A stretch of DNA of 64,000 nucleotides, from contig CBDIID010000003.1 in NCBI GenBank assembly GCA_965279515.1, positions 3,712,001-3,776,000 of the forward strand. Reading direction: 5' to 3'. Under the pieces are notes generated by a model that was not told where the DNA came from, searched no databases, and saw only the letters and a program-made list of their open reading frames with translations. This stretch comes from Turneriella sp. (GTDB taxonomy: Bacteria > Spirochaetota > Leptospiria > Turneriellales > Turneriellaceae). Positions 24,122-64,000 of this stretch are shown here, in pieces. The position numbers were made by a program, and so were the translations under genes. Each line of letters starts with the position of its first letter. Position 1 is the stretch's first letter.

Positions 24122-24545
24122 GTGGATTTTACGCTGACGTTTTTTGACGCTTGTGTCTTTTATTCATTCTGTAAAGCCGATTTGCGTCAAAAAATGTGGT
24201 CGTAGCGGCTCGCGGCGGCGCGCGAAAACACACCTCCCGGTGTGCGCGTCGTCCGCGATCTTTGCCGCGCAGACCCGAGCACGCGAGGAGCTACGGCACC
24301 GCAGCGGCGCAGCGCGTAAAATTTGTTGTCTGACGTAGTTGCGCCTGTGAGCCCGGCATGGAGGCCGGGCGACTGCAGAAGAAGGCTGCCCAAAAAAATT
24401 CTGTTTGTCCCATGAAGAACAGGATTCACGCCTGAGACGGACAGTTGCTTCATTAGTTAAACGCGGCGCCAATTTCTTGGATGCTAAATGAACTAGTATC
24501 TCACCGCTTTCGGAAATATGTCATGCCGTTTTTTTGGCATAGGGA

Positions 24546-25085
24546 ATGGCAGTAATTCGTACAGTAAGGGCCATGGAAAGTAGAGTTAGAGTATTCTACA
24601 TCCGAAAAATGGCGATGAGGACATTTTTTATATATAGCCTCATCATTGCCTCGCGGCAAATCAGCGCTACTGGGGAGGGGATCGCTGGTATTACAACCGT
24701 TAATGCCGGTATAGAATTTCACACAGGCAAGTTAGGTCCGGTACCAACGGTCGGTCTGCTGGCGGGTTTCTACTCAATTGTCAGCGCGCACGTACATGCA
24801 AATTTATCCTACCGCCCCGCTGACGAAACTTGGCATACACGAGGTGGGTTTGGATTCGGCATTTTGAATTTCTTACTAAATCTGGACCTGACGTACCAAG
24901 CCGGTAATCAATCCTCCGCCGGATTTCTCTTTGGGGGATCCCTTTTTTGGGGGCTTCAGAGATTACATGATTTGCAAACTTTAGTCGAGGTGTTTTATGG
25001 CTATCAAACTAATTTTGCGGCAAGTACCGAGAATAGCTTGATCGGCGGTTTAAAAATTCATCTGAACCTTGGAAAGAAAATTTGA
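24546..25085 (+). CDS. Hypothetical beta-barrel-like exported protein
   Basis: 179-aa ORF with alternating hydrophobic strands. Start uncertain. Confidence 0.5.
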   Translation: MAVIRTVRAMESRVRVFYIRKMAMRTFFIYSLIIASRQISATGEGIAGITTVNAGIEFHTGKLGPVPTVGLLAGFYSIVSAHVHANLSYRPADETWHTRGGFGFGILNFLLNLDLTYQAGNQSSAGFLFGGSLFWGLQRLHDLQTLVEVFYGYQTNFAASTENSLIGGLKIHLNLGKKI

Positions 25086-25198
25086 TAACCATCCCGTGGG
25101 TTGATAATAGTTTCAACTAAACCGTGGCGAATAGCAATTTCTTAGATGTCAAAATTGATCTTTCGTGCACCTAGCAGCGTCTAATACAAAACAACACT

Positions 25199-25456
25199 AT
25201 GCGAAAATTCATAACGCCGCTATGTCTCATCTGTAGTATCGCCTTACTCGGCGACCTTGCTCACGCAAAACAAAGCAAGGGTGGATTGTGGGCTGGGCCT
25301 GAGACCTTACCGCCGGATCCTAAAAGGAAAAAGCCCGGAGAAGAATGCAAAGCCTCCGATGAATGCCAGCTCCATCATGAATGCAAGCAACAAGGCGATA
25401 AGGGTGTCTGCACCCCACCGCCGCCCTCAAGAATTCCACCCGGTGCCGTAACGTAG
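25199..25456 (+). CDS. Small secreted Cys-rich protein
   Basis: Signal peptide followed by GEECKASDECQLHHEC...GVC disulfide-rich motif. Confidence 0.65.
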   Translation: MRKFITPLCLICSIALLGDLAHAKQSKGGLWAGPETLPPDPKRKKPGEECKASDECQLHHECKQQGDKGVCTPPPPSRIPPGAVT

Positions 25457-26236
25457 CCCGCCGGGCAGCGCGGCCCGGATATTCGCGATAGCATCGCCGG
25501 GATTCTCAAAAAACGTGCGCGTCACGCCATGGATTCGGGTATTGAGGCAAGTAGCGAAGCTATAAAAAACTGCTTCGAAAGCGTTTCTTTGTATGACATG
25601 CTGCCGACCCGGATTTATCACCGGGCCCGCGATGACGCTTGTTTCGGGCTGAAACAGTTTTTTTCTGCGCCGCCTACCGGTTTTGGGCGAAGGTTTCAAA
25701 AGCAGTTCTCTAACTTGCGGTTTCTGCCACCTGATTACGGCGGGTACGCGGGCAGGTTAGCAGACAAGCAGACCTTTCAGGTCTATCTGCGTTCGGTTGG
25801 AATGAATACAGCCCTTTAAAGCCATAAATATCCATAAAGAGTCGTTTTTGCCCATGAAAACAGGATTTACGCCTGAAAAGGTCCGTAGCCTAATCGTCGA
25901 AATGAGTATCAATTTCTTAGATACTTGGTCGCATTTAGTAGCTGGCGCCCGCATGGACGCGGGCGGGAAAAAACAGCGCAACTATGTCAGACAACGTGGA
26001 ATTTACACGAGGTCGATGGTGCGTCGCACAATAAAATTAGGCTTACTTGAAAAGCCGAGTATTAAGCACCATCGATCTGCCGAAGACCGCTCGTTGCGCC
26101 TGACCAAACAAACGTCCCGTTTGTCAGGCGTCAACGATCTTTGCGGTCGAGGCCGAGCACGCGAGGAGCCACGGCACCGCAGCGAGCGCAGCGTGTAAGT
26201 TTTGTTGTGCGACGTTGCCCCGCTGGAAAAAAATGC

Positions 26237-26596
26237 TCAAGCGTTTGCCGGTAGAACGGCTAATGTCGGAGCAGAGTAAATTGAGATAAATATGGCGTCT
26301 TCCGAAAAATCATTTATCGCGCCATGGACTTCGTCTTGTTCAGCAACCGCTATTTGCCCGGCAGAAATTATTGATTTCATTTGATTGCCGCGGAAATAGG
26401 TTAGCTGACCTTTAACCACAAGCCATGTATCTTGGCCGTCGGGATGGGTATGTACGGGAACTTCTTGCCCCGCTTTAACGCCCCAAATCGCCAAACTATT
26501 GGTTTTCGTAGTAGAAATGACGGTTACCGTCGCCTTGTCCTCTGAAAACCGTACCAATGCGGCCGTATTAAACAATCTAATTGCTTCTTTGCTCAT
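26237..26596 (-). CDS. Cupin-domain protein
   Basis: GQEVPVHTHPDGQD...EVHG cupin motifs. Confidence 0.85.
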   Translation of the reverse strand: MSKEAIRLFNTAALVRFSEDKATVTVISTTKTNSLAIWGVKAGQEVPVHTHPDGQDTWLVVKGQLTYFRGNQMKSIISAGQIAVAEQDEVHGAINDFSEDAIFISIYSAPTLAVLPANA

Positions 26597-26938
26597 GTGC
26601 CATTCGTCGCGGATGAAAGCATAATCTTACGGCAAACGCGCACGGAAATATATTCCGGGGCAATGTTCGCACAACGCGGGTTTTACGAGATTTGCGCCTC
26701 GCGGGTGTAAAGTGCTTTCAACGTGGAATTTACCTGAGGTTGAATGACGCTTCGTTCAACTTTGTGTTTTGTAAGGCCATGTTGCGTCACTCAATCTGCC
26801 CGAAGCGCCTCGCGGCAAAGCACAAACCAAGCGTCCCGCTTGTGCTTTGTCCGCGATCTTCTGGCGCGTAGGGCCGAGCACGCGAGGAGCCACGGCACCG
26901 GAGCGGCGCAGCAGGTAAATTTTGTTGTACGACGTTGT

Positions 26939-27610
26939 CTATAGGGCGGCCCATGGTTCCTGAAGCTGATTAACTTTGATAAGCTCGGTAAATGCTTTGG
27001 TATAATCTTTGAAAAGGCCGTTATGAGGAAAATCTTGCAGACTCAGATGGAAGCCAGTACCTGATTTGTACGCCCATTTTCTCAGCTTATAGAATGCTTG
27101 GGCGGCCTTAAAATTATTGAGTATTTTTTGGAAAACAAAGTTCTTCGTTTCTTCCATATCAAACATATCTTCTGCAAATGCGAGTATGACAAAGGCAGAC
27201 AATGGTTGCTTTTCGGTTTTTGATGAAGAACTAGGATTTAGAAAGTTCCAATAGAAAATCGGCGGATTCTCAGTTTCTGAACAGGTTTCCCAATGCGGCG
27301 CCCAAAGTTCCAAATGGCCAAAGCGTGAGTTAGCTGGATTTTCAGGTTTCGCGGGGGTGCCATAGGCCCATTTCAGAATGGATTTCTCGCTCAAATTTAA
27401 ACGACCCAAACCTTTCACTTTGGAATATTGGCCGTTCTTTACATACTCATAGGCCCTGATACCAAATGTCTGCTTCTTCAAAAGTAAAAACTCGTTGATT
27501 GCCGCCGCCACCGGACTTATGGCACGATAGTGCCATGGCATATTGTCGCCAGTTCTAATGAATATCGAATAAGTGTGATAGCTTCGGGTCCAAAAATTAA
27601 TCATAGACAA
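26939..27610 (-). CDS. Hypothetical cassette protein
   Basis: ORF starts within the cassette's GTT arm and stops within the opposite arm, a tight cassette fit. Confidence 0.75.
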   Translation of the reverse strand: MSMINFWTRSYHTYSIFIRTGDNMPWHYRAISPVAAAINEFLLLKKQTFGIRAYEYVKNGQYSKVKGLGRLNLSEKSILKWAYGTPAKPENPANSRFGHLELWAPHWETCSETENPPIFYWNFLNPSSSSKTEKQPLSAFVILAFAEDMFDMEETKNFVFQKILNNFKAAQAFYKLRKWAYKSGTGFHLSLQDFPHNGLFKDYTKAFTELIKVNQLQEPWAAL

Positions 27611-27845
27611 TGTCGTACAACGTGGAATTTACCTGAGGTTGAGTGACGCTTCGTTCAACTTTGTATTCTGTAAAGCCATTTTTGCGTCACTCAATCTGCC
27701 CGAAGCGCCTCGCGGCAAAGCACAAAACAAGCGTCCCGCTTGTGCTTTGTCCGCGATTTTTGGCGCGTAGGGCCGAGCACGCGAGGAGCTACGGCACCGC
27801 AGCGGCGCAGCAGGTAAATTTTGTTGGGCGAAGTAGCCTTTTCGG

Positions 27846-28487: not shown

Positions 28488-28502
28488 AAAAAATATCTTA
28501 AG

Positions 28503-29837
28503 GGTACAATATCAGAACATCGGTAACGAAAAGTCATCACGACATCGGTAACAGTTCTGCCTCAGGCTTTGCCGTGGTTTCCTCCTGATTTGGTGTAAAC
28601 AAATAATTGTTCCGATCGATGTAGCCCAATAGCAGGCTACCGAAGTAGACGTCGATGCGCATGTCGGCGATAAACCGGAGCCCGATCGGGTAGCCGTTAA
28701 AAGAATTGCCGATAAATATCCGGTGCTGCTTGTAGTTGGTGTAACCGCGGTCATTTACGATGCGTACGATGCAATCCTCAGGGTAGGCGGGTAGTACGTC
28801 GCCAGTATACGGAATTTCAGATGGTAGGTAGAACTCTGATGGCGTCCTCATGCCCAGGGCTTCATGCGGTCGCACATTGTTGAAGTCTTCGCGCCACTGA
28901 TCAAACGAAATCTGGTGAAGCTTTAGATCACCGCGAATGCGCCCCTGCAGTTCCGTGCGGATGTCTCTGTGCATACGCTCATGGCCACCATTCTGGGCTG
29001 GCTTTCCCGGATCAATGCGGTCCAGAGAAATTCCCAAGGACAGCCACCAGACTGACAATTTTGTCAGGCCAAAGAGGCCCCACGATGATGCGAAAGGAGT
29101 TCCGTTGTCAGAGCGAATAATTTCCGGCAGACCATAGCGTTTGAAGAGTCTGGCAAAGTGTTGTTTTACATTGGAAATATTGCCCTTTTCCAGTATCTGT
29201 ATCGACAGGATGTACTTACTGTACTCATCGCGAACTGTCAGAGGTTCGCATTTCTCTGCATGTGCAGTATACCACCACCCCTTGAAATCAACCGTCCATA
29301 TGTGATTGGGATGCGTCGCCTTTTCGCGAAGCATCAGCCTCTCTCCGGTTCTGCGGCGCTTCTTTCCTCTTGGCCTTGTCAGACCAGAGCGCGCCAGAAG
29401 GCGATCGACTGTAGGCACTGAAATATCGCCTTTGCGCTCGGGGTAAAGCCTGCAGAAGACCGCATAGATCTTCTTGGCTCCCCAGCGAGGCCTGTTATTC
29501 TTTATGCGAATAATGTCGCAGATTGTTTCTTCGTCAGTGCGGTTCGGATTGCCTCCTGGTTTTCGTGACAACTCCGCCAATCCAGCTAAGCCTTTTTCCA
29601 GAAACCTTGCCTTCCACTTGTACCCTGTCTTGGTGCTGATGCCAAACTCGCGGCACAGCTCTGTGAAACTCTCTACGCCCTCCAGGGCGCGAAAGACAAA
29701 AGATCTTTTCTCTTCCATTTTGGTAACCTCTTTCCACGGCATTTGAGCCCCCTGCCGAAGGCAGGCAAAAGCTCTTTGCGAAGCAAAGTGTTACCGATGT
29801 CTTGATAGAAATGTGTTACCTATGTCGTGATAGTACC
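28503..29837 (-). mobile_element. IS481-family element, copy 1 (1335 bp)
   Basis: Imperfect terminal IRs GGTAC...ACAT(C)GGTAAC, duplicated target TAAG. Confidence 0.92.
28537..29742 (-). CDS. IS481-family DDE transposase
   Basis: MPWKE N-terminus, HTH (ELCREFGISTKTGYKW), WTVDFKG, IRSDNG, QNGGHERMHR, RPHEALG. Confidence 0.93.
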   Translation of the reverse strand: MPWKEVTKMEEKRSFVFRALEGVESFTELCREFGISTKTGYKWKARFLEKGLAGLAELSRKPGGNPNRTDEETICDIIRIKNNRPRWGAKKIYAVFCRLYPERKGDISVPTVDRLLARSGLTRPRGKKRRRTGERLMLREKATHPNHIWTVDFKGWWYTAHAEKCEPLTVRDEYSKYILSIQILEKGNISNVKQHFARLFKRYGLPEIIRSDNGTPFASSWGLFGLTKLSVWWLSLGISLDRIDPGKPAQNGGHERMHRDIRTELQGRIRGDLKLHQISFDQWREDFNNVRPHEALGMRTPSEFYLPSEIPYTGDVLPAYPEDCIVRIVNDRGYTNYKQHRIFIGNSFNGYPIGLRFIADMRIDVYFGSLLLGYIDRNNYLFTPNQEETTAKPEAELLPMS

Positions 29838-30153
29838 TAAGGCTATTTCGCCCAACGTGGATTTTAGGCTGACGTTTTTTGACGCTTGTGTCATTTATTC
29901 AATCTGTAAAGCCGATTTGCGTCAAAAAATGTGGTCGTAGCGGCTCGCGGCGACGCGCGAAAACACACCTCCCGGTGTGCGCGTCGTCCGCGATCTTTGT
30001 CGCGGAGACCCGAGCACGCGAGGAGCTACGGCACCGCAGCGAGCGCAGCGCGTAAAATTTGTTGTCTGAAGTAATTGCGCCTGTGAGCGCGGCTAGGAGG
30101 GCCGCGCGAATTCTGAGTTTAATTGCCTATTACTGGTCATTTCGCGTCGGCAT

Positions 30154-34365: not shown

Positions 34366-34559
34366 GTTAGCCGCCGTTACCGGATTCGCGCGGCTGGCGA
34401 GCAACCCGAAGGTCAGCGATATGCTGTAGTTCGATATTATTAGTAACCGAGGAGTTGTCGCCAGGATCAAAGGCGTAAGCAGCGAAATCTGGCTGTACTC
34501 TCTGATAAAAAATCCTCTTTTTCTCCCCTTCGGGCGCGAAGGAGGTAATGGTGGCTAAC
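34366..34559. repeat. Gene-less cassette, copy 3
   Basis: Near-identical to 23531-23724. Confidence 0.85.
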
Positions 34560-34794
34560 GCGGAATTTACCCGACGTTGATGGTGCGCCACACAATAAAA
34601 CCGGGCTTATTTGAAAAGCCGCATACTAAGCACCATCAATGTGGTCGGAGCGGCTCGCGGCGGCGCGCAAAAGCAAGCGTCCCGCTTGCGCGCCGTCCGC
34701 GATCTTTGCCGCGCAGACCCGAGCACGCGAGGAGCTACGGCACCGCAGCGAGCGCAGCGGGTAAATTTTGTTGTCGGCCGTTTGGCATTGGCTG

Positions 34795-36576: not shown

Positions 36577-36938
36577 AATACCTCTTGCCAAATGGCCGAC
36601 AACGTGGAAAATACCCGAATTGCGCCCTCGCGGGTGTAAAGTGCAAATAAACACGGTTTATGTGACTTTCGCGGGAGCGCATTTGCCCGTAGCGATCTTC
36701 GGCGCGTAGGGCCGAGCACGCGACCCAACGTAGTGGTCGCGGCGCAGCGGGTATTTTTTGTTAGCCGCCGTTGCCGGATTCGCGCGGCTGGCGAGCAACC
36801 CGAAGGTCAGCGATATGCTGTAGTTCGATATTATTAGTAACCGAGGAGTTGTCGCCAGGATCAAAGGCGTAAGCAGCAAGAGCCGGCTGTACTCTCTGAC
36901 AACAAATCCTCTTCTTCTCCCCTTCGGGCGCGAAGGAG

Positions 36939-38273
36939 GGTACAATATCAGAACATCGGTAACGAAAAGTCATCACGACATCGGTAACAGTTCTGCCTCA
37001 GGCTTTGCCGTGGTTTCCTCCTGATTTGGTGTAAACAAATAATTGTTCCGATCGATGTAGCCCAATAGCAGGCTACCGAAGTAGACGTCGATGCGCATGT
37101 CGGCGATAAACCGGAGCCCGATCGGGTAGCCGTTAAAAGAATTGCCGATAAATATCCGGTGCTGCTTGTAGTTGGTGTAACCGCGGTCATTTACGATGCG
37201 TACGATGCAATCCTCAGGGTAGGCGGGTAGTACGTCGCCAGTATACGGAATTTCAGATGGTAGGTAGAACTCTGATGGCGTCCTCATGCCCAGGGCTTCA
37301 TGCGGTCGCACATTGTTGAAGTCTTCGCGCCACTGATCAAACGAAATCTGGTGAAGCTTTAGATCACCGCGAATGCGCCCCTGCAGTTCCGTGCGGATGT
37401 CTCTGTGCATACGCTCATGGCCACCATTCTGGGCTGGCTTTCCCGGATCAATGCGGTCCAGAGAAATTCCCAAGGACAGCCACCAGACTGACAATTTTGT
37501 CAGGCCAAAGAGTCCCCACGATGATGCGAAAGGAGTTCCGTTGTCAGAGCGAATAATTTCCGGCAGACCATAGCGTTTGAAGAGTCTGGCAAAGTGTTGT
37601 TTTACATTGGAAATATTGCCCTTTTCCAGTATCTGTATCGACAGGATGTACTTACTGTACTCATCGCGAACTGTCAGAGGTTCGCATTTCTCTGCATGTG
37701 CAGTATACCACCACCCCTTGAAATCAACCGTCCATATGTGATTGGGATGCGTCGCCTTTTCGCGAAGCATCAGCCTCTCTCCGGTTCTGCGGCGCTTCTT
37801 TCCTCTTGGCCTTGTCAGACCAGAGCGCGCCAGAAGGCGATCGACTGTAGGCACTGAAATATCGCCTTTGCGCTCGGGGTAAAGCCTGCAGAAGACCGCA
37901 TAGATCTTCTTGGCTCCCCAGCGAGGCCTGTTATTCTTTATGCGAATAATGTCGCAGATTGTCTCTTCATCAGTGCGGTTCGGATTGCCTCCTGGTTTTC
38001 GTGACAACTCCGCCAATCCAGCTAAGCCTTTTTCCAGAAACCTTGCCTTCCACTTGTACCCTGTCTTGGTGCTGATGCCAAACTCGCGGCACAGCTCTGT
38101 GAAACTCTCTACGCCCTCCAGGGCGCGAAAGACAAAAGATCTTTTCTCTTCCATTTTGGTAACCTCTTTCCACGGCATTTGAGCCCCCTGCCGAAGGCAG
38201 GCAAAAGCTCTTTGCGAAGCAAAGTGTTACCGATGTCTTGATAGAAATGTGTTACCTATGTCGTGATAGTACC
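36939..38273 (-). mobile_element. IS481-family element, copy 2 (1335 bp)
   Basis: Near-identical to copy 1, duplicated target GAG. Confidence 0.92.
36973..38178 (-). CDS. IS481-family DDE transposase
   Basis: Protein identical to 28537-29742. Confidence 0.93.
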   Translation of the reverse strand: MPWKEVTKMEEKRSFVFRALEGVESFTELCREFGISTKTGYKWKARFLEKGLAGLAELSRKPGGNPNRTDEETICDIIRIKNNRPRWGAKKIYAVFCRLYPERKGDISVPTVDRLLARSGLTRPRGKKRRRTGERLMLREKATHPNHIWTVDFKGWWYTAHAEKCEPLTVRDEYSKYILSIQILEKGNISNVKQHFARLFKRYGLPEIIRSDNGTPFASSWGLFGLTKLSVWWLSLGISLDRIDPGKPAQNGGHERMHRDIRTELQGRIRGDLKLHQISFDQWREDFNNVRPHEALGMRTPSEFYLPSEIPYTGDVLPAYPEDCIVRIVNDRGYTNYKQHRIFIGNSFNGYPIGLRFIADMRIDVYFGSLLLGYIDRNNYLFTPNQEETTAKPEAELLPMS

Positions 38274-40334: not shown

Positions 40335-40529
40335 GTTAGCCGCCGTTACCGGATTCGCGCGGCTGGCGAGCAACCCGAAGGTCAGCGAGATACTGTAGTT
40401 CGATATTATTAGTAACCGAGGAGTTGTCGCCAGGATCAAAGGCGTAAGCAGCGAAATCTGGTTGTACTCTCTGATAACAAATCCTCTTTTTCTCCCCTTC
40501 GGGGCGCGAAGGAGGTAATGGTGGCTAAC
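40335..40529. repeat. Gene-less cassette, copy 5
   Basis: Near-identical to 23531-23724 with a 1-nt insertion. Confidence 0.85.
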
Positions 40530-40769
40530 GTGGATTTTACGCTGACGTTTTTTGACGCTTGTGTCATTTATTCAATTTGTAAAGCCGATTTGCGTCAAAA
40601 AATGTGGTCGTAGCGGCTCGCAGTGGCGCGCAAAAGCAAGCGTCCCGCTTGCGCGACATCTGCGATCTTTGCCGCGGAGACCCGAGCACGCGAGGAGCTA
40701 CGGCACCGCAGCGGCGCAGCGCGTAAAATTTGTTGGGTGCCGTACACGACTCTAAAGCCATCGGCTTCT

Positions 40770-41336
40770 CTAAACGCCCCCCAGATCCATTAGTATAGAG
40801 TCTGTCAAGCAAGTCCAAGTTGCCTGCTTCTTTTGATTACCAGCCTCAGATGAAAGGTTTTCGATAATTTGTGCCTTTTCTTTTGGAGTAAGTTTCTTAT
40901 CTCTCAGAATTAGCTCTATTGCTGCTTCCACTTTTGGAGGTAAACTGGGTTCGTTTCTCGGGGCCCCGTTCTTAGCCTCAGATTTTATTGGCTCCGGGAA
41001 TTTTTTAGAATCTGCTGATCCATTCAGTGAAAACAGAATTTCTAATTCTGTTTTATCAAACCAAACTAAATTACAAGGGCAACAGACGTCTATTTGGAGA
41101 TTTAGGCTGTCATTATAAACCCGGCGTTTGTCCATTGCTGTTTTGCATTTCGGGCATAAAATTGATCTCTCTGGGATAAGAGCCGTGTCAGTTATGGAAA
41201 AGGCTATGGAACCACTTTGGGCTAAAAGTCTTTGCAATGAGCCTATATGGCCAGCACAAGTGAAGCAGGCTAAAGCCGTGCCATAAGGTGTCTTAATGGC
41301 TGCTAATTCGGTATGATCGCATGACGGACAATTCAT
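40770..41336 (-). CDS. Zinc-ribbon (zf-TFIIB-like) protein
   Basis: CPSC, CFTC, CPKC and IDVCCPCNLVWFD..EL motifs. Confidence 0.75.
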   Translation of the reverse strand: MNCPSCDHTELAAIKTPYGTALACFTCAGHIGSLQRLLAQSGSIAFSITDTALIPERSILCPKCKTAMDKRRVYNDSLNLQIDVCCPCNLVWFDKTELEILFSLNGSADSKKFPEPIKSEAKNGAPRNEPSLPPKVEAAIELILRDKKLTPKEKAQIIENLSSEAGNQKKQATWTCLTDSILMDLGGV

Positions 41337-41610
41337 ATTCGTGTATGGCACCCAACGTGGAATTTACCCGAGGTAAAATGACGCTTCGTTCAACTTTGAA
41401 TCTGTAAAGCCATATTGCGTCATTTTATCTGCCGAAGGTCGCCTCGTTGCGTCCGACCAAACAAACGTCCCGTTTGTCGGGCGTCAACGACTCTTGGCGA
41501 CCGAGGCCGAGCACACGACCCAGCGAAGCGGTCGTGCGCGCAGCGGGTAAATTTTGTTGTCTGAAGTTTGCGCTACGAAACCGCCGAGCCAAGGAGGGCG
41601 AGGCGGAGCA

Positions 41611-42075: not shown

Positions 42076-42466
42076 GTAATTTCGTATCCATAACGCTCTC
42101 ATATCTGCTGTCAACTCCGATGTTGCGAGTTCGGGCATGGATGCCCGAAAGTCTGAGCTGACTTGCGCAAATTTCAGACAACGTGGAAAATACCCGAATT
42201 GCGCCCGCGCGGGTGTAAAGTGTAAATAATCACCGCCTTATGCGACTTTCGTGGGAGCGCATTTGCCCGGAGCGCCTCGCGAGCCTGCCAAAACACACCT
42301 CCCGGTGTGGCAGGCGAAGCGATCCTTGGCGCGTAGGGCCGAGGACGCGACCCAACGTAGTGGTCGCGCCCGCAGCGGGTATTTTTTGTTGTGCGATGAA
42401 TCTGCAAGGCATTACAAATGCCCCCGGCCAAGCATGGAGGCTTGGCCGGAGATTACTACAAATATT

Positions 42467-42495
42467 TGACCTTGTGTTTCAATTGATATACATTG
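42467..42495 (+). promoter_or_regulatory. Sigma70-type promoter of the DinJ-YafQ cassette
   Basis: TTGACC-17 bp-TACATT, 5 nt before the ATG (probably a near-leaderless mRNA). Confidence 0.65.
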
Positions 42496-42500
42496 TCTCC

Positions 42501-42761
42501 ATGGCCAAAGACGCAATTATAAATGCCCGGGTTGAAAGCCGACTTAAGACTAAAGTCGATCAGATTTTCAATGTTCTGGGATTGTCTCAAACCGAAGCCA
42601 TAACCCTTTTTTACAAACAAGTTGAGCTTAACCAAGGGTTACCCTTTGACGTCAAAGTACCCAATAAGCTCACTAGGAAAACTCTGAAGGATTCGAGAAT
42701 CGGGAAGAATATCAAGAAGTTTAAGTCAAAAGCCGACCTATACGCTGACCTGGGTATTTAA
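42501..42761 (+). CDS. dinJ: RelB/DinJ-family antitoxin
   Basis: INARVESRLK...LGLSQTEAI.LFYKQV...GLPFDV. Confidence 0.88.
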   Translation: MAKDAIINARVESRLKTKVDQIFNVLGLSQTEAITLFYKQVELNQGLPFDVKVPNKLTRKTLKDSRIGKNIKKFKSKADLYADLGI

Positions 42762-43030
42762 TGCTCGATATCGAGCGTAGCAATCAATTCAAGAAAGATC
42801 TAAAGCGATCTCTCAAGAGAGGCAAGGATCCAGAAAAATTGAAGGTTCTTATTGAACTGTTAGTTCAACAGAAAGCTTTACCTGCTAAGAATAGAGATCA
42901 CAAACTGACGGGTGACTACATCGATTGCAGAGAATGCCATATCGAGCCAGATTGGCTGCTGATCTATACGGCAAATGAGACAGTGCTGCGCCTAGAGCGG
43001 ACAGGCTCACATGCAGATTTATTTGAATAG
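42761..43030 (+). CDS. yafQ: YafQ-family mRNA interferase toxin
   Basis: FKKDLK...DHKLTG...RECHIEPDWLLIY...RTGSHADLF. Confidence 0.92.
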   Translation: MLDIERSNQFKKDLKRSLKRGKDPEKLKVLIELLVQQKALPAKNRDHKLTGDYIDCRECHIEPDWLLIYTANETVLRLERTGSHADLFE

Positions 43031-43412
43031 CGATTTATAGCGCTGACAGGATGTCAGCGAGGCTCAGGTGACTTGCAGATTTTTCGCACAACGTGGAAAA
43101 TACCCGAAGTGCGCCCTCGCGGGTGTAAAGTGTAAATAATCACGGCTTTACCTGACTTCCGTGGGAGCGCATTTGCCCGTAGCGCCTCCCTGAGGAGCAC
43201 CAAACAAACGTCCTGTTTGTGCGACGAAGGGATCTTGGGCGCGTAGGGCCGAGCACGCCCGCTAACGAAGTGCGGGCGAGCGGAGCGGGTATTTTTTGTT
43301 GTCGGCAGTGTTTAGCTTACGTTAGCCGCCGGCGACATGGAGGTCGCCAGCGGACGCTTTGTGGGTAAGTTTCTTTGTCTCTGATTTCAGTTTTTTGTGC
43401 GATTTAACTCAT

Positions 43413-44206: not shown

Positions 44207-44400
44207 GTTAGCCGCCGTTACCGGATTCGCGCGGCTGGCGAACAACCCGAAGGTCAGCGATATGCTGTAGTTCGATCTTATTAGTCACCGAGGAGTTGTC
44301 GCCAGGATCAAAGGCGTAAGCAGCGAAATCTGGCTGTGCTCTCTGATAACAAATCCTCTTTTTCTCCCCTTCGGGCGCGAAGGAGGTAATGGTGGCTAAC
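44207..44400. repeat. Gene-less cassette, copy 6
   Basis: Near-identical to 23531-23724. Confidence 0.85.
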
Positions 44401-44650
44401 GTGGAATTTACCTGACGATTGGTGACACTTGTGTCATTAACTCCATCAGGAAGGCCAAATTGTGTCACCAATTGTGCCCGGAGCGCCTCGCGGCAAAGCA
44501 CAAAACAAGCGTCCCGCTTGTGCTTTGTCCGCGATCTTCTGGCGCGCAGGGCCGAGCACCCGAGGAGCCACGGCACCGCAGGGAGCGCAGCAGGTAAATT
44601 TTGTTGTCGGCAGTAGGCATTGGTTCGCCACGGACTTCAGGTCATTTCCT

Positions 44651-46266: not shown

Positions 46267-46713
46267 AAGTCTTCGCGCGATTTCAGACAACGCGGAATTT
46301 ACACGAGGTCGATGGTGCGCCGCGCAATAACGACAGACTTATTTAGAAAGCCACGTATCAAGCACCATCGATCTGCCGTAGACCGCTCGTTGCGCCTGAC
46401 CAAACAAACGTCCCGTTTGTCAGGCGTCAACGATCTTTGCGGTCGGAGGCCGAGCACGCGAGGAGCCACGGCACCGCAGCGAGCGCAGCGTGTAAATTTT
46501 GTTGTCTGAAGTAATTGCGCCTGTGAGCCCTGGCAAGGAGGCCAGGGCGACTAGGATTAAGGTCTCATAATCAGAAAAAATACCGTTTTTCGAGTCAAAA
46601 CTTCGCGTGATGTATCTTTTTGTCATCTAAAAACCCGCTTTACACCTTAGAGATTTGGGATTCTGTAGGTCTTAGTGGGCGAGTGTGCCTGCACATTACT
46701 AAATGTATTAAAA

Positions 46714-49718: not shown

Positions 49719-50024
49719 GGAGCATCCTGCGAGTTGCGCCGCCATGGAGGGCGGCGGAGTAAAGGGCACAACTATGTCAGAGAACGTTGGATTTTACGCT
49801 GACGTTTTTTGACGCCTGTGTCATTTATTCAATTTGTAAAGCCGATTTGCGTCAAAAAATGTGGTCGTAGCGGCTCGCGGCGACGCGCGAAAACACACCT
49901 CCCGGTGTGCGCGTCGTCCGCGATCTTTGCCGCGAAGACCCGAGCACGCGAGGAGCTACGGCACCGCAGCGGCGCAGCGCGTAAAATTTGTTGTCGGCAG
50001 TAAATCGCTGGATACAATTCTGCT

Positions 50025-50724: not shown

Positions 50725-51174
50725 TCATATCGATTTATTGCCGACAACGCGGGTTTTACCTTGACGTTTTTGCTTGTGGCGTCTTCGTCACAAGCAAAAA
50801 TGTGCCCGGAGCGCCTGCCCGAGCCCGCCAATGCAGGCCCACTGGCCGGCGGGCGCAGGGCATCTTTGGCGCGGAGTGGCCGAGCACGCGACCCAACGGA
50901 GTGGTCGCGCGCGCAGCAGGTAAAACTTGTTGTCTGAAGTAATTGCGCCTGTGAGCGCGGCCAGGAGGGCCGCGCGAAATCCAATCTCAGCTACCCATAA
51001 TTTGTCATTTTGTTGCCTCAAGAACAGGCTTTACGCCTGAGAAATCCGGGGCTCCGGAGGTCTTTGTCGGGAATAGATTCTTATGTAGTAAAGGACGCGG
51101 CAGCAGCACAGTTAAGATCGACGAACCTGCCACAATTATGAAAGTATCCACAGATTTCTCACTGGAGGCAATTA

Positions 51175-52958: not shown

Positions 52959-54293
52959 GGTTCAATATCAGAACATCGGTAACGAAAAGTCATCACGACA
53001 TCGGTAACAGTTCTGCCTCAGGCTTTGCCGTGGTTTCCTCCTGATTTGGTGTAAACAAATAATTGTTCCGATCGATGTAGCCCAATAGCAGGCTACCGAA
53101 GTAGACGTCGATGCGCATGTCGGCGATAAACCGGAGCCCGATCGGGTAGCCGTTAAAAGAATTGCCGATAAATATCCGGTGCTGCTTGTAGTTGGTGTAA
53201 CCGCGGTCATTTACGATGCGTACGATGCAATCCTCAGGGTAGGCGGGTAGTACGTCGCCAGTATACGGAATTTCAGATGGTAGGTAGAACTCTGATGGCG
53301 TCCTCATGCCCAGGGCTTCATGCGGTCGCACATTGTTGAAGTCTTCGCGCCACTGATCAAACGAAATCTGGTGAAGCTTTAGATCACCGCGAATGCGCCC
53401 CTGCAGTTCCGTGCGGATGTCTCTGTGCATACGCTCATGGCCACCATTCTGGGCTGGCTTTCCCGGATCAATGCGGTCCAGAGAAATTCCCAAGGACAGC
53501 CACCAGACTGACAATTTTGTCAGGCCAAAGAGTCCCCACGATGATGCGAAAGGAGTTCCGTTGTCAGAGCGAATAATTTCCGGCAGACCATAGCGTTTGA
53601 AGAGTCTGGCAAAGTGTTGTTTTACATTGGAAATATTGCCCTTTTCCAGTATCTGTATCGACAGGATGTACTTACTGTACTCATCGCGAACTGTCAGAGG
53701 TTCGCATTTCTCTGCATGTGCAGTATACCACCACCCCTTGAAATCAACCGTCCATATGTGATTGGGATGCGTCGCCTTTTCGCGAAGCATCAGCCTCTCT
53801 CCGGTTCTGCGGCGCTTCTTTCCTCTTGGCCTTGTCAGACCAGAGCGCGCCAGAAGGCGATCGACTGTAGGCACTGAAATATCGCCTTTGCGCTCGGGGT
53901 AAAGCCTGCAGAAGACCGCATAGATCTTCTTGGCTCCCCAGCGAGGCCTGTTATTCTTTATGCGAATAATGTCGCAGATTGTTTCTTCGTCAGTGCGGTT
54001 CGGATTGCCTCCTGGTTTTCGTGACAACTCCGCCAATCCAGCTAAGCCTTTTTCCAGAAACCTTGCCTTCCACTTGTACCCTGTCTTGGTGCTGATACCA
54101 AACTCGCGGCACAGCTCTGTGAAACTCTCTACGCCCTCCAGGGCGCGAAAGACAAAAGATCTTTTCTCTTCCATTTTGGTAACCTCTTTCCACGGCATTT
54201 GAGCCCCCTGCCGAAGGCAGGCAAAAGCTCTTTGCGAAGCAAAGTGTTACCGATGTCTTGATAGAAATGTGTTACCTATGTCGTGATAGTACC
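52959..54293 (-). mobile_element. IS481-family element, copy 3 (1335 bp)
   Basis: Near-identical to the other copies; one end reads GGTTC; duplicated target CGCA. Confidence 0.92.
52993..54198 (-). CDS. IS481-family DDE transposase
   Basis: Protein identical to the other two copies. Confidence 0.93.
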   Translation of the reverse strand: MPWKEVTKMEEKRSFVFRALEGVESFTELCREFGISTKTGYKWKARFLEKGLAGLAELSRKPGGNPNRTDEETICDIIRIKNNRPRWGAKKIYAVFCRLYPERKGDISVPTVDRLLARSGLTRPRGKKRRRTGERLMLREKATHPNHIWTVDFKGWWYTAHAEKCEPLTVRDEYSKYILSIQILEKGNISNVKQHFARLFKRYGLPEIIRSDNGTPFASSWGLFGLTKLSVWWLSLGISLDRIDPGKPAQNGGHERMHRDIRTELQGRIRGDLKLHQISFDQWREDFNNVRPHEALGMRTPSEFYLPSEIPYTGDVLPAYPEDCIVRIVNDRGYTNYKQHRIFIGNSFNGYPIGLRFIADMRIDVYFGSLLLGYIDRNNYLFTPNQEETTAKPEAELLPMS

Positions 54294-58045: not shown

Positions 58046-58840
58046 AATGTGCTGATCTATTTCACGTTATGCTGACATTCCGTAGTTATTTTTTTTTAAT
58101 TTGGAAAGCATATAGCTTGCCCTACGCCATGTCAAATAATAGACTTATGCATAAATAAAAGCTATTGGCAAATTCGGGGACTCGCGCTTGCTTGAAGTTT
58201 GCTGATTGCGCCATTGCAGATTGGTTATTACGCGTATAAGACGCCTGGCTGTAAAGCCAGCTTAGCGCACGTTGAAGCTATTAGGACTGGTTTTTTACGC
58301 TCGTGATTTCTTAGGGCTGGCCATTTTATTAGCCTGAGAATTACATTCTGTAGACGTGCGATTAGGGACCAAGCACGCATTTTTCAGGAGCATTATCCTG
58401 CATATCCGGAGTCTCAACTTGGTCAATGCGCCGACACGAGGTCGGCGAATAACAGAGGCGCAATTATTTCAGACAACGTGGATTTTACGCTGACGTTTTT
58501 TGACGCTTGTGTCATTTATTCAATCTGTAAAGCCGATTTGCGTCAAAAAATGTGGTCGTAGCGGCTCGCGGCGACGCGCGAAAACACACCTCCCGGTGTG
58601 CGCGTCGTCCGCGATCTTTGCCGCGGAGACCCGAGCACGCGAGGAGCTACGGCACCGCAGCGGCGCAGCGCGTAAAATTTGTTCTCTGCCGTAACCGCTT
58701 CGGATAGCCCGGTCATGGATGGCCGGGCGTAAACAGGTCGATTGAGGATCGATCAATTCCATAACGCTTTAAATTAAGGTTAAAAGGATGTTTACGCTAT
58801 TTCGGTAAAGAATCCTTAGGTTACGCGGAGTTAAATTTTC

Positions 58841-59374: not shown

Positions 59375-59838
59375 TTTGGGTTTTCTTGGCATAAAGTGCA
59401 ATTAAATGTCTGCGCCCACACGATGTGGGCGAGACCGAATGAGAACTATTGCGGTTATGGCAGAGAACGCGGAATTTACCTGACGTTTGGTGACACTTGT
59501 GTCATTAATTCAATCAGAAAAGCCGCCTTGTGTCACCAAATGTGCCCGGAGCGCCTCGCGGCAAAGCACAAAACAAGCGTCCCGCTTGTGCTTTGTCCGC
59601 GATCTTCTGGCGCGTAGGGCCGAGCACGCGAGGAGCCACGGCACCGCAGCGAGCGCAGCAGGTAAATTTTGTTGTCTGAAGTGATTGCGCCTGTGAGCCC
59701 GGGCAAGGAAGCCCGGGCGACAAGTTTAGGAACTGTGACGTCAGAAATTAGTTGGCTTAGCGACCTATTATTTAACTTTATGATTGCCAATTTATAATTG
59801 CTTTAATACTCTAGTCAAATCGGTATCACAGGTAGGAA

Positions 59839-60558: not shown

Positions 60559-60911
60559 TGTAGAACTCTGCGGCAGGAAAATGGACTTGCGAAGGAAAAG
60601 AAGCCGCCTCTACTTCTAATACTGAGTGAACAAAGCATTAATATCAAGATATGGAATAGCGCCGACACGGAAGTCGGCGGATGACAAAGGCGCAATCATT
60701 TCAGACAACGTGGAAAATACCCGAATTGCGCCCCCGCGGGTGTAAAGTGCAAATAAACACGGTTTATGCGACTTTCGTGGGAGCGCATTTGCCCGTAGCG
60801 CCTCGCGAGCCCGCCAATGCAGGCCCATTGGCCGGCGGGCGCAGCGATCTTCGGCGCGTAGGGCCGAGCACGCGAGCCAACGAAGTGCTCGCGGCGCAGC
60901 GGGTATTTTTT

Positions 60912-61105
60912 GTTAGCCGCCGTTACCGGATTCGCGCGGCTGGCGAACAACCCGAAGGTCAGCTATATACTGTAGTTCGATCTTATTAGTCACCGAGGAG
61001 TTGTCGCCAGGATCAAAGGCGTAAGCAGCGAAATCTGGCTGTACTCTCTGATAACAAATCCTCTTTTTCTCCCCTTCGGGCGCGAAGGAGGTAATGGTGG
61101 CTAAC
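60912..61105. repeat. Gene-less cassette, copy 7
   Basis: Near-identical to 23531-23724. Confidence 0.85.
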
Positions 61106-61322
61106 GTGGATTTTACGCTGACGTTTTTTGACGCCTGTGTCATTTATTCAATTTGTAAAGCCGATTTGCGTCAAAAAATGTGGTCGTAGCGGCTCGCGGC
61201 GACGCGCGAAAACACACCTCCCGGTGTGCGCGTCGTCCGCGATCTTTGCCGCGAAGACCCGAGCACGCGAGGAGCTACGGCACCGCAGCGGCGCAGCGCG
61301 TAAAATTTGTTGTGTGCCGTAA

Positions 61323-62132
61323 TTATGAGCAGGGCCCGGTACCAAAATCATCCGAAGTAGATAATTCTTTTCCGTTAAGGATGAACCGCTCTGGTTCTTT
61401 GGACTCAGGCAAATCTTTACCTTCTAGATTGGACAGCATAATCTTTTGTTTCGGGTTCTTCATATCGCAACCTTGAAAAGAGTATGATTTATCCTTGTGC
61501 CGTGTAATTATACCGTATAATAACTTAATCTTGCCATCTTTTAGCCCGTCAGCCGTCACGGCATGAGTCTGATTTGATAAGTTTATGACAATCGTCTTGA
61601 GTTCGTTTGTTAGAAATGTAACTTTGCCAACCTCGATATCAATTCTTTGCTGCAAAAGCCAACTCATGTGGCTTACGGAATATCTGCCGAATTTAACATC
61701 AAAAATTCGGGATATTGGTATTACCGGAGTTTTTAGTTTGCCGTCTTCATAATAGAGAAGGGCGGCTGCATTCCAAGAGTCACCAATTATTTCTGGCCAG
61801 TCATTAATAAAGAGCACCTTATTTCCTGATTCGTTAATATACCCTTTCATTGTCTGTGTGTAAGGTTGGTGCATATTCTGCAACAATTCAGAGGCAGTGA
61901 CTTTAAGTTCTTTAATTAGGGCCTTAGTATACTGTTCCCCCTCCGAATCATGGAGGTCATAGAGCTTCTTGCCAGTTTTCTGCTCAATTAATCTCCATAG
62001 ATGCTGATTCTTATTATCTCTCACTAAGCAATGAAGCTTCGTGGTATTACAGAAATTAAATGTGTGCCGCGGTTGATCTGAAAATATCTTCCAAAACGGA
62101 ATAAGGCAGATTAGGAATAAAATAAGTCTCAT
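61323..62132 (-). CDS. Hypothetical exported protein
   Basis: Signal-like N-terminus. Start and stop lie at the cassette arms. Confidence 0.7.
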   Translation of the reverse strand: MRLILFLICLIPFWKIFSDQPRHTFNFCNTTKLHCLVRDNKNQHLWRLIEQKTGKKLYDLHDSEGEQYTKALIKELKVTASELLQNMHQPYTQTMKGYINESGNKVLFINDWPEIIGDSWNAAALLYYEDGKLKTPVIPISRIFDVKFGRYSVSHMSWLLQQRIDIEVGKVTFLTNELKTIVINLSNQTHAVTADGLKDGKIKLLYGIITRHKDKSYSFQGCDMKNPKQKIMLSNLEGKDLPESKEPERFILNGKELSTSDDFGTGPCS

Positions 62133-62376
62133 AATTATGGCACACAACGTTGGATTTTACGCTGACGTTTTTTGACGCTTGTGTCATTTAATCAATCTGT
62201 AAAGCCGATTTGCGTCAAAAAATGTGGTCGTAGCGGCTCGCGGCGACGCGCAAAAACACACCTCCCGGTGTGCGCGTCGTCCGCGATCTTTGCCGCGAAG
62301 ACCCGAGCACGCGAGGAGCTACGGCACCGCAGCGGCGCAGCGCGTAAAATTTGTTGGCTGAAGTTGCCAACTCGGC

Positions 62377-62928
62377 TCAGTTAGCTCCGTGCAATGCTCT
62401 TTGAGCAATCTGGTAGGCTTTTGAACGGCTTATGCCGTTTGCGAAATCTTGATACAGTTCATGATCGACTTCTTTCAATTCTATTCTCGGCCGCTGGCCA
62501 GGAACTTGAAAATGAGCCACCGTTTGAAGATTTATTGTATCTGGGTAATACGGTAATGTATTGCAAAACCAACCAAAACTCTGATAACCTGAATTATCTG
62601 CATTGAAATTATCTACATACCATTCAAAGTTGGTTTTACTTTGCGAAACCCAAACACCCCAAGTAAAAGGTATTGGATAGTCAATAATCGGGATTTCTAA
62701 AATTACACGAATAAAATAATCATCTGGTGAAATTGTGCATAAATCACTATTTAATTGTCCAAGCGAATTCTGGTCCTCTTCGGACAAAGCCGAATAGTAA
62801 GCTGGGGCAGCGTAGCTGAAACTCGGATCACCTTTGTGCTCTTTTCCGCATTCTATGCATTTGAACGTAAATGCATCGAGGCCTTTATTCTCTTCAGAGG
62901 TTTGATGCCTTTTTGAGTCTTCTTTCAT
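62377..62928 (-). CDS. DUF2199-family protein
   Basis: CIECGKEH...SDLC...FIRVILEIPI...WGVWVS.S...RP. Confidence 0.8.
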   Translation of the reverse strand: MKEDSKRHQTSEENKGLDAFTFKCIECGKEHKGDPSFSYAAPAYYSALSEEDQNSLGQLNSDLCTISPDDYFIRVILEIPIIDYPIPFTWGVWVSQSKTNFEWYVDNFNADNSGYQSFGWFCNTLPYYPDTINLQTVAHFQVPGQRPRIELKEVDHELYQDFANGISRSKAYQIAQRALHGAN

Positions 62929-63184
62929 GTTTTTGGCAATTTCAGCCAACGTGGAATTTACACGAGGTCGATGGTGCGATGCACAATAAAGGCGGGCTTA
63001 TGTAGAAAGCCGCGTATTAAGCACCATCGATCTGCCGCAGACCGCTCGTTGCGCCTGACCAAACAAACGTCCCGTTTGTCAGGCGTCAACGATCTTTGCG
63101 GTCGGAGGCCGAGCACGCGAGGAGCCACGGCACCGCAGCGAGCGCAGCGTGTAAATTTTGTTGGCTGAAGTGACGGGTCGTGGC

Positions 63185-63802
63185 CTATTTGTGAACTTTC
63201 TTCTTAACAACAAACCCTCTGTCATCAAGAAATAGGGTGGCCATTTTGTCTTTGTAGGCAAAAAGAATGGCATTAGTTGAACGGTTGATGGTCGCCATTT
63301 TGTTCACTTCATCGCTCAGGATATGTGTCGGAAATATGACATTACCGCTCGGTTCACCGAGGCTTTTTTTAATTTGATTCAGGTGCGTCTTGCCTTCAAT
63401 GATTTTATCTGTTTCTGAAATGTCAAAATCTGTGGTTGAATCTGAAAAACTTGAAAAGAACAGAAAGCCGGTGACAAAGTTACCCACAAACTCAACCCGA
63501 AGTGACTTGAAGCCGCTGCCTGGCTTTTCATTGTCTTTGTAGAGCCATTCAAAAACATCATGCCTTATGCCATTGTAAGTACCCTGAACCTTCAACGTCG
63601 GTTCACCAAACCTGGAAATGGTTTCATTTAGTGTCGTTACGCCAATCTTGAGTTCGCGCCAATTGTCATGTTTAAAATTACGTGCGGTAGTCGCGCATGA
63701 GAAAATAGACAATGCTGAGATGGTAAGAATGATTGCCATCAAAGGAGAGCTAAAATGATTCAATTTGTGTCGCATAATCATTACAAATGCCTTTCCCGTC
63801 AT
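63185..63802 (-). CDS. SmpA/OmlA(BamE)-like repeat lipoprotein
   Basis: Lipobox IFSC and two G.T....I...GEP repeats. Confidence 0.65.
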   Translation of the reverse strand: MTGKAFVMIMRHKLNHFSSPLMAIILTISALSIFSCATTARNFKHDNWRELKIGVTTLNETISRFGEPTLKVQGTYNGIRHDVFEWLYKDNEKPGSGFKSLRVEFVGNFVTGFLFFSSFSDSTTDFDISETDKIIEGKTHLNQIKKSLGEPSGNVIFPTHILSDEVNKMATINRSTNAILFAYKDKMATLFLDDRGFVVKKKVHK

Positions 63803-64000
63803 TTCAGCCAACGTGGAATTTACCTGAGGTCGATAGTGCATCGCACAATAAATACAGTCTTCATTCGGAAGCCGCGGCTTGATGCACTATCGATCTGCCG
63901 TAGGTCGCCTCGTTGCGCCCGACCAAACAAACGTCCCGTTTGTCGGGCGTCAACGACTCTTAGGCGACCGGAGGCCGAGGACGCGAGCCAACGAAGTGCT

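Follow-up and report, generated by a model that had tools for sequence, protein, structure and literature searches.

In the genome of Turneriella sp. (4.9 Mb, 53% G+C) we identified two cassette arrays, one of which extends into the 64,000-nt stretch analysed here (the window, G000:C3:3,712,001-3,776,000) and consists of G+C-rich repeats of ~205 nt that alternate with cassette bodies. Most bodies open and close with arms that complement one another, not the other side of the adjoining repeat, and a G.T pair occupies position 11 of these arms. We consider it probable that the repeats are folded-DNA recombination sites, equivalent to attC, of an integron-like Turneriella system that uses a Xer-like recombinase; the arms would form a cassette-specific outer stem in the circular cassette and the G.T pair would mark the bottom strand. 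This reading is carried by the anatomy of the arrays, the cognate rule that the arms follow, a cut that falls within the AAC triplet, the linkage of recombinase genes to the arrays of relatives and the strand bias of the wobble pairs.

Cassette arrays and repeats

The two arrays lie on the same strand of the chromosome, array A at ~93,003-170,673 and array B at 3,734,381-3,805,399, and together contain 126 paired sites that bound 124 cassettes.

22381-64000, + strand: part of cassette array B in the window, repeats of ~205 nt alternating with bodies; the + strand corresponds to the bottom strand of an integron

The repeats follow the pattern ...NNNNAAC-GTGG-AWWWTAC...GTAWWWYTT-GTTNNNN..., and the bodies between them measure from 190 to ~4000 nt. 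In the window, the L'/R' motif was found 43 times against 5.04 expected, the maximum in 100 shuffles being 11. Sites were called from the motifs with at most one mismatch, and a missed site fuses cassettes, as in one 8963-nt 'cassette'.

Pairing of the cassette arms

An earlier note on this sequence had claimed that the sequence starting at each GTT complements the end of the same cassette, with a near-invariant G.T pair at position 11 and almost always a G at position 8. The four example pairs it gave (40732/41356, 49990/50748, 61309/62148 and 58681/59468) are all present where it placed them, and both base preferences were borne out by the counts below.

40732-40749, + strand: start arm of the first example cassette (GTT plus 15 nt); G11 is base 40742 and G8 is base 40739
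41339-41356, + strand: end arm of the first example cassette (15 nt plus AAC); the T facing G11 is base 41346, and the inferred crossover is 41355/41356
49990-50007, + strand: start arm of the second example cassette; of its 18 positions, only position 11 fails to match the end arm
50731-50748, + strand: end arm of the second example cassette, used in the arm comparison
58681-58698, + strand: start arm of the third example cassette, used in the arm comparison
59451-59468, + strand: end arm of the third example cassette, used in the arm comparison
61309-61329, + strand: start arm of the fourth example cassette, with a 21-nt run
62128-62148, + strand: end arm of the fourth example cassette, used in the arm comparison

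We delimited 34 cassettes between 24325 and 63812 of the window, of which 32 match the start arm to the reverse-complemented end arm at 14 or more of 18 positions; in all 32, position 11 is a G.T pair on the + strand, with the G in the start arm. At 26204, one of the two misses, the left end of the site is duplicated, the true end is an earlier AAC and the arms pair with a one-base bulge; the other, at 36760, is a small cassette with an insertion sequence (IS) inserted in it, which matches at 13/18. Over the whole genome, and disregarding position 11, an unbroken run of at least 14 starts at GTT in 91 of the 124 cassettes. The run stops at 7 in 13 cassettes, where a second G.T pair occupies position 8, stops at 9 in nine, where position 10 is T.T, and is 6 or less in 11.

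Among the 76 unique cassettes with a run of at least 15, G is found at position 8 in 76/76, G stands against A at position 11 (start arm against reverse-complemented end arm) in 76/76, and T is found at position 12 in 74. At the other positions up to 16 the arms agree in 100% of these cassettes, and agreement at positions 17, 18, 19 and 20 is 96%, 87%, 50% and 43%, respectively, a collapse after position 18 that places a sharp end of the stem near 18. We also considered whether A11 of the gene-side arm is part of a start codon, a candidate that was dropped because position 13 is G in just 18 of the 76.

Pairing between non-cognate arms is far poorer. Only 270 of 15,252 pairings with non-cognate cassettes reach a run of 14, most of them within one family that shares its arms, and the two sides of a single repeat in the array give a run of 6 or less at 109 of the 126 sites. 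Of the 15 positions from 4 to 18, 13.85 are paired between cognate arms and 7.63 between array neighbours; arm pairs have a hairpin energy of -21.1 kcal/mol when cognate and of -6.3 +/- 3.3 kcal/mol when non-cognate. As the earlier note held, an arm has its partner at the other end of the same cassette and not across the adjoining repeat, and the pairing runs on into the repeat only in the circular cassette.

Two further arm classes were observed. In one, CGATGN stands against CGAAAN, with T.T at position 10 beside G.T at 11 and a variable position 12; it accounts for 9 cassettes in this genome (for example, window 42388-43092) and 16 in a complete genome of the same genus (G007). The other, rarer class has a one-base bulge at this place and occurs at 26204 in the window and at genome positions 110,296 and 132,343.

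Relatives and a classical control

The same arm structure is found in relatives, which as kin are dependent samples. G007 carries 152 paired sites in one 145-kb array; the run reaches at least 14 in 122 of its 151 cassettes, and G8 and G/A at position 11 are present in 66 of 66 unique good cassettes. Further genomes contribute loci with 81 unique cassettes; the run is at least 15 in 53 of these, and all 53 have G8 and G/A11. When this genome and G007 are pooled, 176 of 194 unique cassettes are cognate, with position 11 being G.T in 175 and C.T in one.

As a control we used a classical integron array of the same phylum (G305), whose IntI scores 508 bits and whose attC sites are 52-56 nt from AAC to GTT. 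The cognate run there (cassette start versus left end of the next site) is 5-9 with a mode of 8 (n=14), and of 211 non-cognate runs 166 are 5-6, 25 are 7, 19 are 8 and one is 9. The control is also cognate, so pairing with one's own cassette is ordinary integron behaviour; what distinguishes Turneriella is the 18-bp length of the cognate stem and the fixed wobble.

The mobile unit and its cut

Duplicated cassettes delimit the mobile unit. Their copies have a common left (+ strand) repeat, at an identity of 0.86-1.00, and right repeats of mostly 0.66-0.81 identity, with some pairs at 0.87-0.98. In seven duplicated pairs identity starts right after the ...AAC on the left side of the left repeat and stops at the ...AAC that closes the body, so that the mobile unit comprises C, the repeat, GTT and its arm, the body and the second arm ending in AA. 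The crossover that the earlier note had put at G/TT (+ strand) is thereby moved to AA|C, with each cassette owning the repeat on its left; the resolution of this cut is the conserved AAC triplet, not the exact bond. Classical attC sites are described as recombining between A and C of AAC in the bottom-strand R box (PMC5027507), and by this resemblance the + strand corresponds to the integron bottom strand. The arm results are independent of whether the upstream or the downstream repeat is assigned to a cassette; the final circular junctions use the upstream one.

40529-41355, + strand: complete mobile unit (inferred), consisting of the C of the left AAC, its own repeat (40530-40731), GTT and start arm, body, and end arm to AA
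40770-41336, - strand: open reading frame (ORF) inside this unit, with a Zn-ribbon domain
42396-43030, + strand: RelB/YafQ toxin-antitoxin pair (Pfam PF04221, PF15738) in a cassette of the T.T-at-10 class, opposed to most cassette genes

Cassettes that are 100% identical together with their own repeat are found in both arrays beside different neighbours, which, judged from sequence, reflects recent movement. Among single-ORF cassettes, 63 of 94 are coded on the - strand, with the ORF filling the cassette tightly, a bias that agrees with the + strand being the bottom strand. In the window, most cassettes coded on the + strand carry toxin-antitoxin pairs (RelB/YafQ, DUF433/DUF5615, BrnA-type, Gp49/HTH).

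Predicted fold and strand bias

For each of the 76 unique cassettes the circular junction, composed of its own end arm, own repeat and own start arm, was folded on both strands, the folds being thermodynamic predictions. An outer stem of 18 bp including AAC/GTT is predicted, in agreement with the extended stem in the circle proposed in the earlier note, and inside it lie an unpaired spacer of 2-4 nt, an inner stem of ~10 bp (AWWWTAC/GTAWWWT) and three terminal hairpins. There is a 2-nt bulge between the R and L stems, with no bulged bases inside the L stem, and the consensus of the 76 sites agrees with the individual folds.

The mean energy of the circular junction is -77.4 kcal/mol on the + strand versus -72.3 kcal/mol on the - strand, with the + strand being more stable in 76 of 76 junctions, by 5.15 +/- 1.68 kcal/mol. 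In the array context the means are -62.0 (+) and -58.2 (-) kcal/mol, which leaves the circular junction more stable by 15.4 kcal/mol. Each fold contains on average 4.32 G.T pairs on the + strand versus 1.20 on the - strand, the + strand count being higher in 75 of 76. The mismatches between cognate arms of this genome and G007, read on the + strand, comprise 182 G.T, 29 T.T, 20 G.A, 8 C.A and few others, and in the spacer GTGG faces TTTT on the + strand where CCAC faces AAAA on the - strand. The wobble is strand-specific, as had been claimed, with G.T on the + strand and C.A on the - strand; the bias of mismatches and spacer shows that wobbles favour the strand with AA|C at its 5' side.

The recombinase

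The genome encodes four tyrosine recombinases, none of them near an array, and no tyrosine recombinase was found in the flanks of either array, which contain IS481-type transposases, Mla/ABC genes, a P450 and unassigned ORFs instead. With E<=1e-30 as the threshold, an IntI model matched nothing in 20 family genomes; across the phylum, 29 of 301 genomes score above its curated cut-off, so the search works. One of the four, a Xer-like recombinase of 366 amino acids (C3:2,926,096-2,927,205) has homologues in 13 of the 20 family genomes, and in G007, G013, G011, G016, G015, G010 and G020 the homologue lies directly beyond the last cassette. It is on the same strand as the repeat pattern, that is, in integron terms, upstream of the cassettes and divergent from them. 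The copy in G020 looks broken. A conserved junction, AAC|GTnTATTCCCTG, separates the last cassette from the recombinase gene in G007, G016, G013, G015 and G020, and we read it as a putative attI. A similar AAC|GTCTATTAnCTGnATTGCG, not accompanied by a recombinase gene, closes each of the two arrays of this genome, at C3:170,673 and at C3:3,805,399, the latter ~29 kb past the window. The platform of recombinase and array seems to have been split and duplicated here by rearrangement. In G013 (locus L075), two small ORFs that resemble AbrB/MazE-MazF, by eye only, lie between the attI-like junction and the recombinase gene.

XerA_Arch is the best NCBIfam model for the array-linked recombinases, at 196-210 bits against a cut-off of 220. 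The integron integrase model TIGR02249 scores 161-178 bits in two stretches (cut-off 265), and scores for XerC (170-190 bits versus 335) and XerD (158-180 bits versus 330) are likewise below the equivalog cut-offs. When the protein is aligned with VchIntIA (2a3v), query residues 110-278 correspond to 5-172 and residues 309-382 to 244-317; the 30 query residues that stand against 71 in VchIntIA mean that the IntI-specific insertion is missing. IntI proteins are defined by an additional domain near patch III (Messier & Roy 2001, as cited in PMC9668308 and PMC4889954). The columns of the catalytic Arg, Lys, His-x-x-Arg, His and Tyr are invariant across the recombinase family.

In the structure model of the recombinase (mean pLDDT 87), residues 1-60 are confidently predicted as a three-helix domain; a poorly predicted linker leads from it to the usual two domains. 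Its best fold matches are VchIntIA and archaeal XerA (4a8e, 5hxy), with similar scores, and sequence matches give the same picture. Foldseek, run with the whole model and not with the N-terminal three-helix domain alone, returned no match specific to this domain. The nearest relatives outside the spirochaetes are candidate-phyla proteins of ~270 amino acids that are 40-45% identical and are named 'site-specific tyrosine recombinase/integron integrase' at NCBI.

The start of the recombinase gene is preceded by TGTTCTAnnnnnTGTTCTAT in six genomes. The exact 15-mer GTTCTATTTTTGTTC (GTTC-N7-GTTC) has four occurrences in 4.84 Mb of this genome, each upstream of a gene:

C3:2,927,215: recombinase
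C3:2,600,652: recA
C3:4,316,038: lexA-like gene
C3:4,249,241: one further gene

The GTTC-N7-GTTC motif, a type of box that also lies upstream of the recombinase gene in relatives, is the LexA box type of alpha-proteobacteria, and GTTCTATTTTTGTTC is probably the LexA box of the genus, which would put the recombinase in the SOS regulon. Classical integron integrases are SOS-controlled; if LexA binds GTTC-N7-GTTC, the Turneriella system would be induced by damage in the same way.

Shared arms and probable selection on the stem

The 124 cassettes have 92 distinct 18-nt start arms, 83 of which are singletons, so the claim that each cassette has arms of its own holds for cognate pairing and not for strict privacy. 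One arm, GTTGTCTGAAGTAATTGC, is common to 13 cassettes with unrelated interiors, and another is common to 12. Members of the 13-cassette family have identical 22-nt arms and ~50 nt of hairpin-bearing sequence at both ends.

22588-22640 and 23262-23325: shared hairpins of a 13-cassette family member
30061, 38504, 46501, 50929 and 54514: starts of other members with the shared hairpins

This family looks like a reusable cassette frame. The combination of shared arms and hairpin ends with unrelated cargo hints that one frame may take up new cargo, which bears on the second reading offered in the earlier note, that the stem is a fingerprint of cassette formation. The family also has a G+C-rich hairpin ~25 nt inside each arm, the stems of which covary and the loops of which are purine-rich (..GGAGG..) on the + strand.

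Where homologous cassettes differ in their arms, the change is usually present in both arms and at one position. Paired and one-arm changes number 170 versus 19, counts that are inflated by copies and include IS-matched and non-cognate pairs, and families were therefore counted in place of pairs; two are clear, with paired changes at positions 7 and 9 in one and at 4 and 7 in the other. Changes confined to one arm include a new + strand G.T (position 14), a T.T (position 10) and, in a single cassette, changes at positions 4-5. Together with the conserved G8 and T12, the paired changes point to selection on a stem that is paired and also read by sequence.

A model for strand choice and its alternatives

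In the model that we infer, cassettes form circles, the recombinase recognizes the bases at positions 8, 11 and 12, and the wobble directs the choice of strand. Each cassette would be cut at AA|C on the + strand. The two arms, which in the array lie on either side of the gene, would in the excised circle flank the cassette's own repeat and, with AAC/GTT, form the 18-bp outer stem. Positions 1-12 (GTTnnnnGnnGT paired with ATnnCnnnnAAC) would be the binding (R) arm of the recombinase: Xer binding arms are about as long as the conserved part of the outer stem, and the sole conserved bases (G8, G.T11 and T12) lie in this part. Positions 13-18, which hold no sequence information and pair near-perfectly, may act as a sequence-free clamp that keeps the arm duplex where the single strand opens into the gene.

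G.T11 would mark the right strand in the folded form. It exists only in the folded bottom strand, the folded top strand having C.A and the duplex G-C or T-A, and is for this reason a good candidate for such a mark; it may replace the role that extrahelical bases and the IntI-specific domain play in classical integrons. Recognition or strand marking is the best reading of the wobble, which the earlier note had offered as a possible recognition feature. Because the full stem is present only in the circle, with a gain of ~15 kcal/mol, the circle should be the better substrate, and this preference may bias the system towards capture and help to explain arrays of 126 and 152 sites.

Several points weigh against this model. 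About one in ten cassettes is without clear arms, some being disrupted by IS elements or artefacts of motif calling, and with up to 13 cassettes per arm the arms are not a unique address. The recombinase gene of this genome is far from both arrays (0.9 Mb away), so that activity in trans has to be assumed. R-box stems in the array are weak and non-cognate, and the model does not explain excision from this state. Assembled contigs of four sequencing runs gave nothing usable for or against circles or excision, and the proposed role of positions 8, 11 and 12 in protein binding is argued from conservation and from the arm lengths of Xer sites.

The arms might instead be a by-product of cassette origin or repair, through cargo swaps in a frame or arm-templated correction, and have no role in recognition. 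The 13 cassettes with identical arms and hairpin ends around unrelated interiors would fit such an origin, as would a stem length set sharply near 18, but we think it unlikely: templated correction would erase a mismatch, yet G.T11 is kept in 175 of 176 cassettes and C.A is never found there on the + strand; the conserved G8 and T12 and the paired changes point to selection; and 83 of the 92 arm types are singletons.

A second alternative is that the arms act in the array, by cross-gene pairing in the transcript or in single-stranded DNA, for RNA processing, insulation or juxtaposition of sites. Starts and stops of the ORFs are within tens of bases of the arms, which flank them closely, and pairing in cis could rebuild an R and L box from two neighbouring half-repeats. 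However, the mRNA of the 63 of 94 genes on the - strand would have A.C at position 11 and not G.U, all wobble marks favour the non-coding + strand, and a loop of 500-2000 nt would compete poorly with the local repeat fold. A search of the whole window against Rfam at the gathering threshold returned 0 families. We regard such a role in the array as quite unlikely.

That the arrays are fossils of a lost classical integron, clusters of attC sites lacking integron-integrases (CALINs) in which the arms are functionless relics, appears improbable. No recombinase gene adjoins either array here and no IntI was found in the genome, which would fit, but near-perfect pairing at the sequence-free positions 13-16 in 76 unique cassettes would not be expected of decaying DNA, both arrays contain identical cassettes with new neighbours, and a recombinase homologue is intact with its catalytic residues. 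Both arrays also keep attI-like ends, and relatives have the complete layout. Small transposons (resembling IS elements or miniature inverted-repeat transposable elements) inserting at AAC/GTT are hardly credible, even if the inverted repeats have a length typical of IS elements, as transposon ends are conserved among copies whereas positions 13-18 vary here (92 arm types in 124 cassettes), the moving unit includes one 205-nt repeat and ends at AA|C and not at the arm tips, and there are no target duplications, the sole transposases being IS481-type insertions inside cassettes.

Beyond the model of folded sites and a Xer-like recombinase in Turneriella, we put forward a more tentative generalization, which is possible but in greater doubt. 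Integron-like systems with a plain Xer recombinase may choose the folded bottom strand by long cassette-specific stems and a fixed G.T pair, which would replace extrahelical bases. In such systems the circle and not the array would be competent, capture would exceed loss, control would be by SOS, and the arrangement could be ancestral or an independent invention.

Relation to known systems

The Turneriella arrays resemble classical and sedentary chromosomal integrons, such as the Vibrio superintegron, in their mostly single-gene, co-oriented cassettes with inverted toxin-antitoxin ones, and in sites that run from AAC to GTT and have an inner stem, a variable tip and an unpaired spacer, the predicted fold being the hairpin expected of attC. 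The AA|C cut on the bottom strand, the pairing of the first bases of a cassette with its own site, the divergent recombinase beside an attI-like site (in seven relatives) and the probable LexA box are further similarities. Unlike classical integrons, Turneriella has a recombinase without the IntI insertion near patch III, and sites of ~205 nt (AAC-GTT interior mostly 200-212), which is outside the 57-141 bp given for classical attC (PMC5027507). Its cognate stem is 18 bp long, compared with 5-9 (mode 8) in the classical array of the same phylum, its G.T pair is fixed, and its inner stem has, from folding only, no extrahelical bases. The system that the earlier note described in terms of a classical integron works like a sedentary chromosomal one but departs from the definition in its integrase and from the classical range in site length.

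As in CALINs (as presented in Cury et al. 2016, PMC4889954), neither array here has an adjoining recombinase gene; unlike them, Turneriella arrays retain attI-like ends, and relatives show a complete platform with a non-IntI recombinase. Among the published cases that we found, rAID-1 of Bacteroidales is the nearest, as a XerD-like recombinase with integron-like repeats. The description available in Ross et al. (bioRxiv 10.1101/471110) gives a XerD-family recombinase, repeats 'reminiscent of integrons', and a 5', co-directional recombinase (at least 44% identical to that of B. fragilis) ahead of low-GC immunity genes. Both systems tie a XerD-family or Xer-like tyrosine recombinase to gene arrays with repeated intergenic sequences. 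By layout and cargo as described there, Turneriella is set apart, with a divergent recombinase, mixed cargo (toxin-antitoxin and unassigned proteins) and another phylum as host; cognate stems and wobble marks are not part of that description of rAID-1.

The similarity to Xer/dif systems and archaeal XerA is seen in the match to archaeal XerA, which is on a par with that to VchIntIA, and in XerA_Arch being the best NCBIfam model. The differences are the scores below cut-off, the extra N-terminal three-helix domain, and arrays of up to 152 sites in place of a single dif. The genome also encodes two tyrosine recombinases of 312 and 305 amino acids, a size like that of Xer proteins. Archaeal integrons, as outlined in Ghaly et al. 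2022 (PMC9668308), similarly are integron platforms outside the classical hosts with attC that folds as a single strand, but archaeal IntIs are stated there to keep the IntI-specific additional domain that the Turneriella protein is without.

In the literature searched, mainly open articles without their supplements, neither Turneriella arrays nor cognate stems beyond the R box are described. The genome paper of T. parva does not mention 'integron', 'cassette' or 'recombinase', and searches on integron-like tyrosine recombinases and on Patescibacteria integrons found nothing relevant.

Integrons are defined by an integrase whose special domain reads bulged bases in a folded DNA site. The Turneriella arrays bear on the questions of how ordinary Xer recombinases gave rise to integrons and of how cassettes come about, and, with 126 sites here and 152 in a relative linked to a plain Xer-like enzyme, they form a large natural data set. 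The fixed wobble in an 18-bp stem offers a directly testable rule of strand choice and a possible reason for large arrays. Standard integron finders, which require IntI and short attC, may miss such sites.

Small cassettes and insertion sequences

The start arm common to 12 cassettes is mainly that of a small cassette, which has several copies in the window:

23531-23724, + strand: small cassette, one of the 12 with the common start arm, with G.T at positions 8 and 11
23928-24121, 34366-34559, 40335-40529, 44207-44400 and 60912-61105: other small cassettes in the window with the same start arm

Over both arrays, ten of the 12 are 194-195 nt long, one is 188 nt and one, carrying an IS, is 1533 nt. 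The copies are 89-100% identical, each travelling with its own repeat. No ATG-started ORF of 60 amino acids was found in the small cassettes, which may be empty or regulatory.

28537-29742, - strand: IS481-family transposase of 401 amino acids inside a cassette (Pfam rve/rve_3/LZ_Tnp_IS481)
36973-38178 and 52993-54198: identical copies of the IS481 transposase, 100% identical over 300-nt repeats
28503-29742, 36939-38178 and 52959-54198: IS481 elements, identical, near cassette end arms

More copies of this IS481-family element were observed in array A and just upstream of it.

Chromosomal flank and occurrence of the repeat

The distal end of array B, with its first repeat ~400 nt from ilvD, borders a gene outside the system:

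20136-21980, - strand: ilvD, dihydroxy-acid dehydratase (NCBIfam NF009103, 1183.9 bits), chromosomal flank

Xanthomonas integrons have been reported next to ilvD. We rejected this adjacency as a link to integrons of the Xanthomonas kind, since ilvD borders the distal and not the integrase end, and it is probably a coincidence.

The repeat is present in metagenome-assembled genomes of Turneriella and Leptospiraceae and also on a few contigs binned to other phyla, which we took as mis-binned. The contigs of four sequencing runs were compared with the window. In the isolate-like run, contigs break at the repeats. In contigs of sludge, wastewater and groundwater metagenomes the repeats recur and most bodies are uncovered, which suggests that the Turneriella-type site is common in these habitats with other cargo. 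The summed depth of metagenome contigs over repeats is high, for example, at 40507-40713, 44440-44646 and 46303-46500.

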